From the NCBI GenBank assembly GCA_045612805.1, contig JAZKZR010000008.1, positions 6,276 to 70,275 on the forward strand: a stretch of DNA of 64,000 bases, in the 5' to 3' direction. Within the stretch, counting starts at the first letter, position 1; each line of letters begins with the position of its first letter. A program made the position numbers and the translations under genes. Shown here piece after piece: positions 10,274 through 41,073 of the stretch. The notes below the pieces were generated by a model. That model searched no databases. It saw only the letters and a list, made by a program, of their open reading frames with translations, and was not told the origin of the DNA. The DNA is from Candidatus Enterousia sp. Its GTDB lineage: Bacteria > Pseudomonadota > Alphaproteobacteria > Rs-D84.

Positions 10274-12998
10274 TCGTAACTTCTTCTGTTTCGGTTTCGT
10301 CTGCGCCGTCCGATTCAATAGATATTGCCGACATAACCTTTTCATTTTCCGCCGTGCGGAACAGTGTCACACCGGCGGTGCTGCGTCCGGCGATGCGAAT
10401 GTCCGATGCCGGCGTGCGGATGATTTTACCGCCGTCCGTCACCATAATAACATCGTTTTCCGCCGTAACCGGGAACGAACCCGCCACCGCGGTATTTTTC
10501 CCGCCAAGTTTGATATTTGCAAAACCGCCACCACCACGATGCGTTAGGCGATATTCATACGAACTGGTGCGCTTTCCAAATCCGTTTTCGGAAATCGTCA
10601 AAATGAATTCTTCGCGTGCCGCCAATTCCGCCATTTTCGCGTCGTCCAAGACAAGTGTTGTTGTTTCTTCTTCGTTGTCGGCCTCTTCTTCTATACCGGT
10701 GGCGGCACGACGCGCGGCGCGGCTTTGTTTCACATACGCCGCACGCACCGCGGAATCAGATTCGCCACGATTCAACATCGACATACCGATAATGCGGTCA
10801 TCTTTGCCAAGTGTGATTCCACGCACGCCCGTTGAATTGCGGCCGGCAAAGATACGAATTTCCGGAACCGGGAAACGAATACAACGCCCGCGATAGGTCG
10901 CCAAAAACACATCTTGGTCTTCGGTGCACGGCAACACGGAAACCAAACTGTCGCCATCGTCCAACTTCATTGCGATTTTTCCGTTCGCGCGAATTGAATC
11001 AAAGTCCGCCATACGATTGCGACGCACCGTTCCCGACGCCGTCACGAACATAAGGAAGTGTTCTTTGCCAGAATCCTTTATCGCCGCCACATCATCTTCG
11101 GGCACCGGCAAAATTGCGGTAATCGTTTCGTTTTCGGAAAGTGGCAACAGATTCACCAACGGCCGTCCCTTGGCCGCGGCCGCCGCCTCTGGCAATTTAT
11201 AGGTTTTTAATTTATAGCACAAACCACGCGACGAGAAGAACAACAATGGCGTATGCGTGTTTGCAACGAAAACCTGAACCACATAGTCGTCATCCTTGGT
11301 CGACATTGCGTTGCGGCCCTTGCCCCCGCGTTTTTGTGCGCGGTATGTATCCAAAGACACACGTTTGATATAGCCCGTATTGGAAACGGTCACAACCATA
11401 TCTTCACGGGCAATTAAATCTTCGATATCAATGTCGATTTCCGCATCAGAAATTTCCGTCCGACGTGGCGAAGCCCAATTATCGCGCACCGCGGCGGTTT
11501 CTTCACGAATAATTTGCACAATGCGTTCGTGCGACGCAAGTATGTCCAACAAATCGCGAATCTGCGCGCCCAATTCCACCAAATCCGCGTGCAATTTGTC
11601 GCGCTCAAGCCCCGTTAGCCGGTGCAATTGCAATTCCAAAATCGCACGCGCCTGGTCTTCGGACATATAGAACATGCCGTCTTTGTATTCCGTGTTTGGG
11701 TCATCAATAAGTTGAATATAATTTTCAATATCCGATGCCCGCCACCCGCGCGATACAAGTGCAATACGCGCCTCTTCTGGGTTGGCGGACGATTTAATAA
11801 GTTCAATAACTTCGTCCAAATTGCCAACCGCAACCGAAAGTCCCAACAATGTGTGTGCACGATTACGCGCCTTGTTCAAATCAAAGATTGTTCGACGGCG
11901 AATAACCTCCTCACGAAATTCAATAAACGCATCAAGGACACCGCGAACATTGAACAACATCGGCCGCCCGCGGTTTAGTGCCATCATATTCACAGGGAAA
12001 TTCGTCTGCATTTCCGTGTATTGGAACAGATGATTCAACACAACGTCCGGAATCGCATCGCGTTTCAGTTCGATAACGATACGCAAACCTTCCTTGGACG
12101 ATTCATCGCGGATTTCAGAAATACCTTCTATCTTTTTATCCTTGGTCAATTCGGCAATTTTGATAATCATTTGCGCTTTGTTTACCTGGTACGGGATTTC
12201 GTCGACAACAATCGCCTCGTGATCATGGAATTTTTCAGTATGTGTTTTTGCGCGAACAATTATCGAACCGCGTCCGGTCGTATGTGCCTTGTACGCGCCA
12301 GTGCGCCCCATGATAATCGCGCCCGTCGGAAAGTCCGGACCGGGGATAATTCCAAACAATTCATCATCGGAAATTTCCCGATTATCCAAAATCGCCAAAA
12401 TTCCATTACAAATTTCACCCAAATTATATGTCGGTACATTTGTCGCCATACCAACCGCGATACCCGAACCACCATTGACCAAGAAATTTGGAAACTTGGT
12501 CGGCAAAACAACCGGTTCTTGGAGTGTTCCGTCAAAGTTCGGTTGCCAATCAACGGTGTCTTTGTCCATATCTTCCATGAGTGACGCGCCAAGTTTTGAA
12601 AGGCGCGCTTCGGTGTAACGCATGGCGGCGGCCTTGTCCCCGTCGCGCGAACCGAAATTACCCTGCCCCTGGACCAGCATTTCGCCCATAGAGAAATCTT
12701 GACCCATGCGGACCATGGCCTCGTATATTGAACTATCGCCATGGGGATGGTATTTACCCATAACATCACCGACAATACGCGCAGATTTAACCGTTGGCTT
12801 GGTTGCCGGCGCAACATCGTTCATAACATATAAAATACGGCGGTGCACCGGTTTGCAACCGTCGCGCACATCAGGCAACGCGCGGTCAACAATAACCGAC
12901 ATCGCATAGTCCAAAAACGATGTCCGCATTTCATGTTCAATCGAAGATTGTGGAATTTTGATTGCGTTTATTTCGTTTGTATTTTCAATTTCTGACAT
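10266..12998 (-). CDS. gyrA: DNA gyrase subunit A
   Basis: Start at MSEIEN with aaggaaag SD. Contains the AMRYTEARL active-site Tyr region and C-terminal beta-pinwheel repeats; 910 aa. Confidence 0.95.
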
Positions 12999-20538: not shown

Positions 20539-21815
20539 AAAACATAATTAAAAAATTTTTATTGTTTGTTGTTTGTATCGCTTTTTGCGGTGTGGCGGTG
20601 GCGGCGGAATCTAATTTGGTGACCGGCGACATTGGCGATTTCGGTGCATGGACAACCGAACACAATCGCGAAGAACTTATTCAAACCGTGCAAAATGATT
20701 TGGATGGTTTTGAGTCAGGATTCGAACGCGAATATGTTGAAACCGGTGTTCCGATAGAGGCAAAACTTGGGATATCTTTTATGAGTGCATTGACATACAC
20801 GGCACATATTTTGGATGATTCGTTGGTGCGGTTTGTAAATATATTTTTGATTGTCGCTTTCATTTTTTGGGTTATGTTCGAAGCGTACCGAATGATTAAA
20901 GATTCCAAAGTCAAAGCGATGCCGACGGTCGAAGACATAATAAAAAAAGGTATCACACTTGCGATATGGTTGATAATTTTGGGAATCGGATTGCCACGAT
21001 TGTTTGGAATGATTATGGGGCCGATTGTTGCGTTTGGTTCGTATGTTGCGAATCTGATTTTGGATACGGTTGCGAAAATTGGTAATTTTGAACTTTCCGA
21101 CACATGCGCCGCAATTCAAAATTATGCCGCGACACATATGACAGACACATCAATTGTTGATGCAAAAACCGCCGCAGATATTATGTGTGTGCCAACGCGT
21201 ATGTCCGGGTTTTATTATGGTGCGATAAAGTTCGGTTGGAAAATGATGGGCGCGGGATTGGGGACCAGCACATTTACATTTTTAATGGGATTGGTGTTTG
21301 TTGTCTTGTTCATATACACCGCATTTAAGTTTGCATTTGTTGCGTTTGGTGTGATTGCGGATTTATTTTTAGTGATAATACTGTTGCCATTTACGGCGAT
21401 TGCGGAAACGGTTCAAAAGACATCGTACAAAGGTATCGCCGGCGATATATATAATGGGTTCCTTGGCATATTCAAAACTTCAAATCTTTCGTCCCAGGTT
21501 AAAAAGTTCATTGATGCGGCGATTTATTTTGTCGCGCTTGCAATTGTTGTTTCGATTGGTGGCGCGTTGCTTGGTGGGGCGGTTCAATTAAACACGCAAA
21601 CACATATTATTTCTATATTGGACGGCAATGTTATCACATTACTTATGACCGGTGCGTTGGTTGCGTATATTGCAACGCATGCGGATGAAATTGCAAAGTC
21701 AATTGGTGGTGGAATTGATGCGGGAATCGGAACAAACCTGCAAAAAGATTTGAAAACACTTTATACCGACACCAAGAAAAAGGCCGAAGAATTTATCAAG
21801 GCGTTAAAGAAATAA
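20535..21815 (+). CDS. polytopic membrane protein, paralog 5 of 5
   Basis: ATGA overlap with P4, SD aagga. Signal peptide MKNIIKKFLLFVVCIAFCGVAVAA. The stop is 4 bp from the convergent uvrD stop. Confidence 0.7.
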   Translation: MKNIIKKFLLFVVCIAFCGVAVAAESNLVTGDIGDFGAWTTEHNREELIQTVQNDLDGFESGFEREYVETGVPIEAKLGISFMSALTYTAHILDDSLVRFVNIFLIVAFIFWVMFEAYRMIKDSKVKAMPTVEDIIKKGITLAIWLIILGIGLPRLFGMIMGPIVAFGSYVANLILDTVAKIGNFELSDTCAAIQNYAATHMTDTSIVDAKTAADIMCVPTRMSGFYYGAIKFGWKMMGAGLGTSTFTFLMGLVFVVLFIYTAFKFAFVAFGVIADLFLVIILLPFTAIAETVQKTSYKGIAGDIYNGFLGIFKTSNLSSQVKKFIDAAIYFVALAIVVSIGGALLGGAVQLNTQTHIISILDGNVITLLMTGALVAYIATHADEIAKSIGGGIDAGIGTNLQKDLKTLYTDTKKKAEEFIKALKK

Positions 21816-36924: not shown

Positions 36925-37701
36925 ATGAACATAGAATATATAACCTGCAGTGGTATCGGTCCACATAACGATATATCAGAAATTATCAATCTTGGTAAAA
37001 ATTATGAAAATGCAGAATTTGCGGTTCAGGTAAGTCGTGAAAAATTTTTCCCATATAATGATAGGTATAATTTCTTTCGAACATTGGTTGCCACATGCAC
37101 CGTGAATGACGTGAATCTTGCAATGCATGTGAATCTTGAATATAGGACAGATTTGTGTCGCGGAATTGTCCCGGAATTTTTTCAAGATTTATGGAGTATC
37201 AAGCGTCAAAAAGGAACACAGAATGCGGACAAACCTGTTATCGGTCGGGTTCAAATAAATATAAACGGCGGAAATGATAAATTTACGTTTTATGCCGATA
37301 AAGTCGCAGACATAATTCGCGCATACCCGGGTATTAAATTTATTTTTCAATATGCGCCGGAACAATACGAGCGCATTTCGAAACTTGATAAAAGACATGT
37401 ATCATTTGCGTTATTGTATGATGCATCAGGTGGACGTGGTATTTCCCCAGAAATGTGGGATGCACCGGTTTTTCAGAATCATCAAATGGGATACAGTGGG
37501 GGTATGTCGCCGGATAATGTTGTTAATAACTTAAATGATATAAACGAAATTTTACCCATGGATTATTCGACCTGGATTGATGCCGAAGGAAAATTAAAAA
37601 GTCCCGATGATAATGGCAAAAAACTGTTCGATACGACACTCGCCGAAAAATATATTAAAAACGCATGCGCATGGCAGATGAAAAACGGGTATAATCGGTA
37701 A
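36925..37701 (+). CDS. TIM-barrel protein resembling phosphoribosylanthranilate isomerase (TrpF-like)
   Basis: FALLYDASGGRGISPEMWD...GYSGGMSPDNV follows the TrpF pattern (LLD..GGsG..fdW...laGGl.p.NV). AT-rich relative to neighbours. Confidence 0.45.
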   Translation: MNIEYITCSGIGPHNDISEIINLGKNYENAEFAVQVSREKFFPYNDRYNFFRTLVATCTVNDVNLAMHVNLEYRTDLCRGIVPEFFQDLWSIKRQKGTQNADKPVIGRVQININGGNDKFTFYADKVADIIRAYPGIKFIFQYAPEQYERISKLDKRHVSFALLYDASGGRGISPEMWDAPVFQNHQMGYSGGMSPDNVVNNLNDINEILPMDYSTWIDAEGKLKSPDDNGKKLFDTTLAEKYIKNACAWQMKNGYNR

Positions 37702-37704
37702 AAA

Positions 37705-37733
37705 ATATCGCCGAATTTCGGCGATGTTTTTAT
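37705..37733. terminator. bidirectional terminator between the TrpF-like and ACP-like genes
   Basis: atcgccgaa-tt-tcggcgat hairpin followed by gttttta. Confidence 0.65.
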
Positions 37734-38080
37734 TAATATCTTTCTTTTGTTTTGCTATATAACCCGTCACGAAGTAATGATTTTTTTTGATTGATTTGTT
37801 TAATCTGGGTTTGAACATTCATGTTATTATACAAAAAATCTATAATATCGTTCACGGTTATATTCGATTTGGTTGTTAAACCATCCTTGGGGTCACAATT
37901 CATTTCGGTACCAAATTCGTGTTCCAAATGTTCCCAAAGGTTGTACCAATCGAATGAATCTAGGGCCAACAGAATATCGCCATTATTCTTGGATTTAACA
38001 CTAATAATATCGCAAGCATACAACGCGTTATTCAGTTTATTTTGAATTTCTGGCCGGGTCCAGTTTTTATTTTTCATCAC
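37733..38080 (-). CDS. acyl/peptidyl carrier protein-like protein
   Basis: LALDSFDWYNLWEHLEHEFGTEM aligns with the ACP helix II ([21 protein letters not shown]), with Ser in DSF. Confidence 0.5.
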   Translation of the reverse strand: MMKNKNWTRPEIQNKLNNALYACDIISVKSKNNGDILLALDSFDWYNLWEHLEHEFGTEMNCDPKDGLTTKSNITVNDIIDFLYNNMNVQTQIKQINQKKSLLRDGLYSKTKERY

Positions 38081-38225: not shown

Positions 38226-38603
38226 ATGAAAAAAATACTTATCTATGGTGTCGCGGTCGCCGCTATTGCGGGATGTTCGACAAAGGAAGAAACAAAAGAA
38301 GTCAAGGTTTTTGATGCATCTTGTGAAAAGGTCGCCGTTTTCGAACAGGGCGATATGATTGTGAAATGTCCAATCAATGAAACACTGTCTTCGTTGCAAG
38401 ACCAAACCCCAACTGGCATGTTTGTTCCGCACGACAATTTCAACGTTTCAGAATTGGCTGCGGATGCGGAACATGTCTATGTGAACGTTATTCCGGCGGG
38501 CGCGTATGAATGGGCGACATATAAAGAATACCGCATAATGGTGAAAAATCCGGTTATGGATGAAAATTCCCTTTATACCGTTAGCGTTGTGGTTCAAGAA
38601 TAA
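38226..38603 (+). CDS. hypothetical lipoprotein (125 aa)
   Basis: Lipobox AIAGCS; SD aaaggag. Confidence 0.6.
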   Translation: MKKILIYGVAVAAIAGCSTKEETKEVKVFDASCEKVAVFEQGDMIVKCPINETLSSLQDQTPTGMFVPHDNFNVSELAADAEHVYVNVIPAGAYEWATYKEYRIMVKNPVMDENSLYTVSVVVQE

Positions 38604-38616
38604 ATATCTTTGAAAC

Positions 38617-38644
38617 AAAACCGCCATTTGTTTGGCGGTTTTTT
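38617..38644 (+). terminator. rho-independent terminator
   Basis: aaaaccgccatttgtttggcggtttttt. Confidence 0.75.
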
Positions 38645-38650
38645 ATTATA

Positions 38651-38679
38651 TTGCAAAATTGGGTAAATTGGAATATAAT
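38651..38679 (+). promoter_or_regulatory. near-consensus sigma70 promoter (TTGCAA-17-TATAAT)
   Basis: Exact hexamers with optimal spacing, followed by SD aaaggag and the 36 aa ORF. Confidence 0.6.
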
Positions 38680-38707
38680 CATAATGTATCAACAAAAGGA
38701 GTAAAAA

Positions 38708-38818
38708 ATGCTAACCCTTATATTTGTGATATTAAAACTAACAAACGTGTTAAATTGTTCTTGGTGGTGGATTGTTTTAACATTGTTATTGGATTTTGGT
38801 GTTATACGGATTTTGTAA
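38708..38818 (+). CDS. small hydrophobic peptide, 36 aa (MLTLIFVILKLTNVLNCSWWWIVLTLLLDFGVIRIL)
   Basis: Complete expression unit of promoter, SD (7 nt spacing), ORF and terminator. Below the ORF-track cutoff. Confidence 0.45.
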   Translation: MLTLIFVILKLTNVLNCSWWWIVLTLLLDFGVIRIL

Positions 38819-38838
38819 TTGCCACAATAAAACCACAG

Positions 38839-38864
38839 GGCCCGCGCACGGCGGGTCTTTTTTT
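38839..38864 (+). terminator. rho-independent terminator of the mini-gene
   Basis: gcccgc-gcacg-gcgggt hairpin followed by a T7 run. Confidence 0.65.
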
Positions 38865-38889
38865 AGCATAGATTTAAAAGGGGAATTTT

Positions 38890-39168
38890 ATGAATACTTT
38901 TTGGGGCGAAATCGTGGGTTATTTATCCGGTGTTTGCACGACACTGGCATTTTTACCCCAGGCAATAAAGTCCATTACCACAAAAAACGTGTCGGGGCTT
39001 TCCCTGTATATGTATATCATATATTGCATGGGGTTGGTGTTTTGGATTCTTTACGGTGTGTATTTGCATTCATTTCAAATAATGTTGTTCAACAGCATTA
39101 CACTGGTGTTCAATGGAATAATATTGTATATGATAATAAAATCTGGAACGCGGCGTAAGAAGAAATAA
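38890..39168 (+). CDS. SemiSWEET / PQ-loop sugar transporter (3 TM, 92 aa)
   Basis: TLAFLPQAIKS PQ-loop motif and 3 TM; SD aaagggg. Confidence 0.75.
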   Translation: MNTFWGEIVGYLSGVCTTLAFLPQAIKSITTKNVSGLSLYMYIIYCMGLVFWILYGVYLHSFQIMLFNSITLVFNGIILYMIIKSGTRRKKK

Positions 39169-39296: not shown

Positions 39297-39383
39297 TGGT
39301 GGGAGTGGGTGGATTCGAACCACCTCAGGCTTAAGCCAACAGATTTACAGTCTGCCCCGGCTCTCCAACTCCGGCGCACGCCC
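39297..39383 (-). tRNA. tRNA-Tyr, anticodon GUA
   Basis: Hand-folded. Anticodon loop CTGTAAA, long variable arm, T-arm GGTTCGAATCC, encoded CCA. One acceptor-stem mismatch as read. Confidence 0.75.
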
Positions 39384-39478: not shown

Positions 39479-39553
39479 TGGTGCGGGCAGCGGGACTCGA
39501 ACCCGCATATCAAGCTTGGAAGGCTTGCGTACTAGCCCTTGTACTATGCCCGC
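39479..39553 (-). tRNA. tRNA-Gly, anticodon UCC
   Basis: GCGGGCA acceptor stem, anticodon loop CTTCCAA, T-arm GGTTCGAGTCC, encoded CCA. Confidence 0.8.
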
Positions 39554-39867: not shown

Positions 39868-41073
39868 TTACTTTACTGATTGATTTTTATTTTCGCATTT
39901 TTTGATTGCCGCATTCCAATGTTGACCTTTGCTACAAAGAACACAATTTTTGTATTCCGATGGACTTGATTTCATCCAACATTTTCCAACATTGTGCATC
40001 CCGTCTAACAAATCTTTTGCATACAGCGTATATTCAACACACTTTTCACCGTTGACACCTTGCGTTTTGGTCGTTGCGCACGGAATACATGTTTTATTTT
40101 CATCAAGCCCATAGCCATCTATGCAAGTATATTTTTGGCACGTTCCATCTTTGTATATTTTGTAATTTTCTGTGTAACTAGTTGGTTCAGACCAACCACT
40201 GCACCATCCATTACTAGATTGATTATCGTTGTTGCATTCACAAGCAGTAGCATCGCTGTTTGGCACATAACCATCATAACACAACAATACAGGGCTTTCA
40301 TTTGAATATGCGGAACTTATCCAGCTTTTTATTCCACCACCAGTTTTACTCCGTTGTCCGACAATTTTAATTGGTGCAACCTTTATTCCATGCGCAACTT
40401 TCCCAACAACCCCAAGGACGACATGATCTGTTTTACGGTCTTCATCATCTGTTCCATACTTACTGGTATAAGATATTACTTCCATTTCCGTCGTATGGCG
40501 ATAGGTAGTCCCTGTTTCAGCATAATAACTCGTATATTCTGAGCGTAGATTTGTCCATTTTGGTAACCCGGTAAAATATCCAGTTGGTCCACGTCCCATT
40601 AAACCGCCACCTTGTGAGGCAGGTGTACCTGTCACAGAACACATCTCAGCACCCGGCACCCCACATGTTGCTCCAGTATACCCTTTGACACAGACAGTTT
40701 TGCAATTTTTCCAAACATCGTCGTCATTGTTCCAATAATAATCCAGCCAAACCCAATATTTACCATTTTTATTAGCGGCCTGTATTTGCACTGGGCAAAA
40801 TTCCGCACCGTTATCATAAATTTTTCGTGCCGCCCAGATTATAATCGCCCCTTCGTCATCGTATGTACCATGTCGAACGTGATTTTCGTTTTTGGCAAAT
40901 TCCGCCTCCACGTCCGGATAAAAATCTGTAATACTCGTTGAAAAAGAATTGCTTGCCTTCCACCATGGTGAAACTTGTGTTTTTTGAGGCTCGGGTAACC
41001 AACTTGGGACTTCTGCCCCCATCGCACCGCTGGCCAAGATTATTCCGCAAATTGCAATAATTATTTTTCTCAT
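39868..41073 (-). CDS. secreted Cys-rich protein (401 aa) with CxC..GY..C repeats; family member C
   Basis: Signal peptide MRKIIIAICGIILASGAMGA, plus modules CKTVCVKGYTGATC, CYDGYVPNSDATACEC and CIDGYGLDENKTCIPC. Confidence 0.65.
   Translation of the reverse strand: MRKIIIAICGIILASGAMGAEVPSWLPEPQKTQVSPWWKASNSFSTSITDFYPDVEAEFAKNENHVRHGTYDDEGAIIIWAARKIYDNGAEFCPVQIQAANKNGKYWVWLDYYWNNDDDVWKNCKTVCVKGYTGATCGVPGAEMCSVTGTPASQGGGLMGRGPTGYFTGLPKWTNLRSEYTSYYAETGTTYRHTTEMEVISYTSKYGTDDEDRKTDHVVLGVVGKVAHGIKVAPIKIVGQRSKTGGGIKSWISSAYSNESPVLLCYDGYVPNSDATACECNNDNQSSNGWCSGWSEPTSYTENYKIYKDGTCQKYTCIDGYGLDENKTCIPCATTKTQGVNGEKCVEYTLYAKDLLDGMHNVGKCWMKSSPSEYKNCVLCSKGQHWNAAIKKCENKNQSVK

Follow-up and report, generated by a model that had tools for sequence, protein, structure and literature searches.

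The window, by which we mean the whole 64,000-nucleotide (64-kb) stretch of Candidatus Enterousia DNA that was analysed, contains on its plus strand a 36-codon open reading frame (ORF) lying between a putative lipoprotein gene and a SemiSWEET gene, and this ORF is accompanied by promoter, Shine-Dalgarno (SD) and terminator sequences of its own. The features of the region are as follows.

36925-37701, plus strand: 258-aa ORF, no Pfam family.
37733-38080, minus strand: 115-aa ORF, no Pfam family.
38226-38603, plus strand: 125-aa putative lipoprotein upstream of the peptide gene, no Pfam family.
38651-38656, plus strand: predicted -35 hexamer TTGCAA from a motif scan (conserved form TTG[C/A]AAAA).
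38674-38679, plus strand: predicted -10 hexamer TATAAT, 17-nt spacer from the -35 hexamer.
38686-38707, plus strand: predicted 5' UTR of about 22 nt, from an inferred transcription start.
38695-38701, plus strand: SD AAAGGAG, spacer of 6 nt to the ATG.
38708-38818, plus strand: coding sequence of a 36-aa Trp-rich hydrophobic protein, MLTLIFVILKLTNVLNCSWWWIVLTLLLDFGVIRIL (ATG at 38708, TAA at 38816-38818).
38837-38864, plus strand: predicted Rho-independent terminator (stem 38837-38859, T7 run 38858-38864).
38890-39168, plus strand: SemiSWEET/PQ-loop gene (Pfam PQ-loop, E 5e-12), a neighbour outside the conserved unit.
39297-39383, minus strand: tRNA-Tyr(GTA), just downstream of SemiSWEET in the variable region.
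39479-39553, minus strand: tRNA-Gly(TCC), just downstream of SemiSWEET in the variable region.
39868-41073, minus strand: 401-aa Cys-rich ORF with a signal-peptide-like N-terminus, no Pfam family.

The 36-aa hydrophobic ORF with its WWW cluster was found where the original prediction had placed it, and so was the GC hairpin with a run of seven T residues behind it; the terminator stem has 9 pairs (6 of them G-C) and a 5-nt loop, and begins 18 nt past the peptide stop codon. The promoter had been called an exact consensus, which it is not, as it matches 10 of 12 consensus positions (TTGCAA vs TTGACA), while the spacing of 17 nt is optimal as claimed. Likewise, the SD aaaggag is present, but at 6 nt from the ATG rather than 7. 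A simple promoter scan of a 6-kb region gave 20 promoter-like sites against 17.2 expected (no enrichment), so that such signals by themselves prove nothing; their conservation, described below, goes far beyond chance. A second terminator at 38617-38642 belongs to the upstream 125-aa lipoprotein gene, and the peptide unit is therefore bracketed by two terminators. In the 5' UTR of the peptide gene only a weak local hairpin was predicted (whole-transcript fold z = -1.09). From these signals and their conservation, the unit of about 180 nt reads as an independently transcribed, monocistronic gene. The SemiSWEET gene does lie just downstream, as had been noted, starting 72 nt past the peptide stop and about 22-25 nt past the terminator. 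A search for a plus-strand promoter-like site between 38680 and 38890 found none, and SemiSWEET therefore probably relies on read-through of the peptide terminator.

Residues 1-28 of the peptide form a hydrophobic stretch, within which three consecutive Trp codons (UGG UGG UGG, 38762-38770) encode the WWW cluster. In the single-repeat subfamily to which the peptide belongs, T3, F6, K10, W19-21 and D29 were invariant; K10 lies 19 residues from D29, which in a helix would span roughly the thickness of one bilayer, and W19/W20 mark the midpoint. AlphaFold2 (AF2) gave a single helix for residues 2-35 of the peptide with moderate confidence (pLDDT 78), whereas its model of a tandem homologue has three helices (2-9, 18-42 and 51-65) joined by two loops (10-17 and 43-50; pLDDT 70), which puts the K-x8-W segment in an inter-helix loop, unlike the continuous helix of the single peptide. 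As the two models disagree, we infer a topology of either a helix or a short helix-loop-helix. A search of PDB sequences with the peptide gave no match. We also considered a lipoprotein or signal-peptide reading of the N-terminal part and rejected it: V-L-N-C is not a lipobox (L-[ASTVI]-[GAS]-C), N stands at position -1, the N-terminus is uncharged, and relatives have W, I, L, V or G in place of the Cys of VLNC. The sequence TGGTGGTGG occurred four times in the window against 0.52 expected, the other sites being at 10528-10536 (minus strand, within gyrA in another frame), 21704-21712 (plus strand) and 40334-40342 (minus strand); a second copy of the peptide was sought in the 64-kb window and none was found.

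We assembled 38 loci, which collapsed to 20 distinct DNA versions of the ORF and 15 protein variants, part of the set having been retrieved by exact-protein or motif look-up and being to that extent biased toward conserved copies and identical products. The -35, -10 and SD elements stood at fixed positions in 18 of the 20 versions; the -10 was invariant in all 18 promoter-bearing loci, its end lying 25-28 nt upstream of the ATG, and the SD AAAGGAG was kept in 18/20. A hairpin with a T-run followed the stop codon in 20/20 versions, at a distance of 10-45 nt. The terminator stems were non-homologous (GGGCCCGC, AACCGACC, ATACCCCG, GCCCCC, GACGGGC, GGGCCCAGAT), yet a terminator was always present, which indicates that termination is preserved and not a particular sequence. 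Between differing genomic contexts, including the RlmN...lipoprotein context and a PNPOx-like (minus strand) context near FtsW/MurG, homology started exactly at the -35 and stopped at the stop codon. The claim of a self-contained mini-gene was thus borne out by promoter and SD (18/20), by terminator (20/20) and by the coding pattern given next. Two copies, L035 (4001-4114) and L036 (2535-2648), had the terminator and lacked the promoter; their SD is weaker (AAAGGTGG and AAAGGGG, respectively) and the sequence upstream is different and possibly coding, and these copies may be co-transcribed with an upstream gene.

The substitution pattern was that of a protein-coding gene. Variable alignment columns at codon positions 1, 2 and 3 numbered 20, 5 and 33 of 37 codons among the 20 DNA versions; compared with the window, pS was 0.21-0.83 (near saturation), pN was 0.01-0.17, and dN/dS was about 0.02-0.1 where computable. 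The window and locus L002 differed at 12 of 111 bases (6 transitions and 6 transversions), every one of them synonymous. With per-site synonymous fractions of 0.36 for transitions and 0.17 for transversions, the analytic probability of such an all-silent pattern was about 5e-8, and 200,000 random placements yielded no case in which the protein was unchanged. Twelve silent changes with no replacement would not be expected under neutrality, the look-up bias notwithstanding, and a motif-based scan of species-representative genomes gave the same substitution pattern. The sole length change among variants was one in-frame codon, which separates the 36-aa and 37-aa types. A conservation check that included the synonymous pattern had been proposed at the outset, with loss of the frame among relatives as the opposing outcome; we found the ORF frame open in 20/20 versions and no other frame open, the remaining five being interrupted by stops in 18-20 of the 20 versions (three frames), in 12 (one frame) and in 8 (one frame). 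These comparisons thus point to strong purifying selection on all parts of the product, and we are highly confident that the gene is genuine and encodes a small membrane protein. It had been expected to escape standard annotation, which was incorrect, because the identical protein is already in NCBI and JGI records as 'hypothetical protein'.

The exact peptide was encoded on at least 17 metagenome contigs, and a scan with one genome per species gave 17 loci in 16 metagenome-assembled genomes (MAGs), all of rumen or gut Alphaproteobacteria and several of them named 'Candidatus Enterousia'. The locus L026, from an Enterousia MAG, had a peptide 97% identical to that of the window and a SemiSWEET neighbour likewise, which places the window in this group. 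Each genome carried one or two copies. In MAG Tb.RUG.342 (JAEEQU01) a 36-aa copy (L029, 4001-4111) and a 37-aa copy (L033, 605-718) were on separate contigs, which points to genuine paralogues or else to contamination of the MAG. Enterousia, of the order Rs-D84, has metabolically reduced genomes of about 0.75-1.0 Mb (PMC12306168), and retention of the gene in genomes below 1 Mb argues for a useful function.

The surroundings of the unit were far more variable than the unit itself. SemiSWEET was next to the peptide in only 5 of 38 loci (the window, L009, L022, L025 and L026), and the exact SemiSWEET protein, when looked up, had no record; at other loci the downstream gene was a convergent 679-aa Cys-rich gene, a convergent 166-aa gene, a Peptidase_S51 gene or an OMP-like gene. 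Even relatives with identical peptides differed downstream, having the 679-aa Cys-rich gene, Peptidase_S51, an OMP beta-barrel-like gene or SemiSWEET-tRNA-Tyr-tRNA-Gly. Synteny broke directly after the peptide terminator (from 38865 onward in the window, from about 3160 in L001-L010), and the region downstream of the terminator resembles a hot spot of rearrangement or insertion. The counterparts of the 401-aa product in relatives were 679-681 aa long and gave a faint Ephrin_rec_like match; the 401-aa product and its counterparts may be variable surface proteins. On the upstream side, a homologue of the 125-aa lipoprotein preceded the peptide in 27/38 loci, a count that includes the FtsW/MurG-type context, where a lipoprotein homologue with 60% identity was present 1.3-1.9 kb upstream (L011, 2321-2692). 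Moreover, L028 mixed features of the RlmN...lipoprotein and FtsW/MurG-type contexts; together with the lipoprotein homologue in the latter, this suggests that both contexts are probably one ancestral, rearranged locus. The lipoprotein and the peptide may form a conserved pair, or their association may simply reflect a common origin of the locus.

Relatives of the peptide were sought at several levels. An exhaustive search of 1.84 billion representatives gave 19 relatives and a profile search of 5.8 billion proteins gave 68, all of them unnamed or 'hypothetical'. Three variants of the peptide matched the profile phrog_1374 directly (E 1.6e-7, 1.3e-7 and 4.7e-8, 32-34 bits, PHROGs having no curated cut-off), residues 1-33 aligning to profile positions 21-54 of 89. 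A search of Pfam with the peptide, including PF10269 (Tmemb_185A, gathering score 23.1 bits), gave no match even at E<=10, and the NCBIfam model TIGR04438 (small Trp-rich protein) gave 11.9 bits (E 0.18), below its curated cut-off of 36. The five-repeat protein P0019, a relative at E 8.5e-6, scored 45 bits on PF10269 and 31 bits on TIGR04438, and hhalign of the peptide profile A1 against P0019 gave 73% probability (E 3e-5, 23 columns). The link to PF10269 and TIGR04438 is thus transitive, through intermediate sequences, and the phrog_1374 match is direct.

The relatives fell into four architectures with the common core hhFhhLKhTx5SWWWh7: a single repeat of 32-41 aa with an invariant Asp at its end; a single repeat with a long acidic C-terminal tail (e.g. 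P0053, found in a MAG of Candidatus Wolfebacteria); proteins of 68-83 aa made of two tandem repeats; and proteins of 64-75 aa in which a polar N-tail leads into the motif, followed by a full TM helix and a basic C-tail. P0076, P0077 and P0083 (68-75 aa) belong to this last architecture and carry precomputed PF10269 matches. By alignment, the core of the single-repeat family can be written h-h-F-h-h-L-K-h-T-x5-S-W-W-W-h7-D. PF10269 ('Transmembrane Fragile-X-F protein') and TIGR04438 share with the peptide the repeat motif hhFIhLKLTxVIxWSWWWV; the peptide differs in having a single truncated repeat, in which K is preceded by 9 hydrophobic residues and WWW is followed by 7 more and then D, and lacks the full flanking TM helices of these two families, both of which are functionally uncharacterised. 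On sequence grounds, therefore, the peptide is a single truncated LKL-x7-SWWW repeat of a known and widespread, functionally uncharacterised Trp-rich membrane family. No account of bacterial members came up in a literature search on the names and motifs of the family; a paper on the WWW motif of Chlamydia YtgR (PMC7755916) concerns a different protein.

As to function, a toxin, a leader peptide and a small membrane or regulatory protein had been offered, and the last is the sole option of the three that remains after the comparisons below. Several bacterial small accessory membrane proteins of less than 50 aa, namely AcrZ, KdpF, CydX, MgtS and MgrB, consist of a single hydrophobic helix and are encoded by conserved genes. 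The peptide has no sequence similarity to any of these and its gene is not part of an operon encoding a complex, so the likeness is a functional analogy only. Our preferred reading, to which we give reasonable but far from complete credence, is of a monocistronic gene whose product is a non-toxic structural or accessory membrane subunit acting by specific helix packing. Selection on every position, retention in genomes below 1 Mb and constitutive-looking signals favour the accessory role; we infer it by analogy and from the retention in reduced genomes, and taken alone, such a non-toxic structural or accessory role is an even bet or slightly better. In this scheme the mRNA would be short, abundant, constitutive and efficiently translated, and the peptide would enter the cytoplasmic membrane as a helix or short helix-loop-helix and serve there as a non-toxic structural or accessory subunit, with K10, WWW and D29 mediating specific helix packing, through self-association or with a partner membrane protein. 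SemiSWEET 72 nt downstream would be a secondary arrangement of the window's lineage and not the purpose of the unit.

The size and hydrophobicity of the peptide also fit phage membrane proteins or pore-forming toxins, and the phage reading is the first to be weighed. It supposes a phage-derived membrane protein kept by the host, e.g. to exclude superinfecting phages or to interact with phages at the envelope in some other way. The best family match, phrog_1374, is indeed a phage protein family (function unknown) which is, like the peptide, small, hydrophobic and Trp-rich; weak tblastn matches occurred in 237 phage records, and the distant single-repeat proteins P0021 and P0062 were on phage-like contigs with RusA, PDDEXK and AAA_24. 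However, the phrog_1374 profile is 89 positions long, and the Enterousia-type gene is instead at syntenic loci among housekeeping genes (RlmN, FtsW/MurG), outside prophage, and is thus chromosomal. A scan of 2.9 million viral contigs with the family profile gave 1 related locus, PADLOC gave no match, and exclusion genes are seldom conserved vertically for so long under strong purifying selection. We therefore regard a phage-derived role as unlikely, while giving it some weight.

The original prediction had compared the unit with type I toxins, and a membrane toxin, whether type I or orphan, would on expression make the membrane permeable or depolarise it and normally be checked by an RNA antitoxin. 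The likeness to TisB, Hok, Fst, Ibs and Ldr lies in suitable size and hydrophobicity (<60 aa) and in the stand-alone intergenic unit, here beside a synteny breakpoint; in addition, K10, N13 and N16/C17 could, from our own reading of the sequence, make a polar helix stripe. Unlike these toxins, the peptide gene has no long structured 5' UTR (about 22 nt predicted, with the SD not stably sequestered and the local hairpin non-conserved), no antisense or adjacent RNA was found, and conservation is vertical and syntenic. The suggested check of the opposite strand turned up no positionally conserved promoter over or after the ORF in the 20 loci scanned, and a recurrent weak minus-strand site at -30 would point away from the mRNA. 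Flanks able to encode an antitoxin were not conserved either, and there was no match to a toxin, antitoxin or defence family in Rfam, Pfam or PADLOC. The promoter appears strong and constitutive, the gene occupies a syntenic chromosomal position in 1-2 copies in genomes below 1 Mb with dN/dS of 0.02-0.1, and homologues exist as tandem repeats inside larger proteins, all of which speaks against toxicity; a toxin is accordingly an improbable identity for the product.

A leader peptide had also been put forward, and its specific form here would be a Trp-sensing attenuator of SemiSWEET, in which stalling at UGG-UGG-UGG modulates termination at the hairpin. The order of three Trp codons, terminator and a transporter gene with no promoter-like site of its own resembles the trp operon leader (RF00513, consecutive Trp codons and then an intrinsic terminator), and a permissive Rfam scan of 38560-38960 gave a Trp_leader match at 38756-38864, weak at 21.7 bits against a gathering score of 41. 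Unlike the trp leader, the unit has no conserved downstream operon, since SemiSWEET follows in so few loci and a different, often convergent gene elsewhere, and similarity to relatives ends directly after the terminator. No antiterminator pairing with the terminator arms was apparent in MFE or centroid folds, where the terminator forms independently; the ORF-internal hairpin lacks covariation, and the distance from stop to terminator and the sequence between them vary. It is the full peptide that is conserved rather than the Trp codons alone, WWW being a family motif in many lineages, and attenuation is thus highly improbable. The weakest alternative, in which the unit yields a small non-coding RNA or the ORF between the two terminators is there by chance, could point to about 180 nt flanked by promoter and terminator and to an AU-rich hairpin (38725-38806) that contains many G-U pairs, but was effectively refuted by codon-periodic substitutions that are all silent between the nearest lineages, by the conserved SD and ATG, by fold z-scores of just -0.75 to -1.09 and by the absence of excess covariation in that hairpin (73.9% paired vs 73.5% in shuffles, 20 sequences), Rfam at gathering thresholds giving 3 tRNAs in the whole window and nothing at the peptide unit.

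Returning to the accessory-subunit reading, a more specific form of it would have the peptide as a minimal free-standing LKL-x7-SWWW unit that works as an oligomer and forms a membrane component essential to gut Alphaproteobacteria whose genomes are below 1 Mb. Here the same LKL-x7-SWWW unit would be the building block both of the tandem proteins of bacteria and phages and of the TMEM185 domain of eukaryotes, and one option for the oligomer would be an antiparallel dual-topology dimer, with K10-D29' salt bridges flanking a stacked Trp core. We consider this form improbable; if true, it would provide a first hold on the function and structure of the family.

What the locus adds to the catalogue of bacterial small proteins is modest and reveals no new mechanism: a 36-codon ORF flagged from the raw sequence is very probably a real, selected gene with complete expression signals. 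Further, with its single repeat the peptide would be the simplest representative of the phrog_1374/TIGR04438/Tmemb_185A family to work on, and its retention by uncultured gut bacteria with genomes below 1 Mb suggests that the peptide likely does something useful for them.
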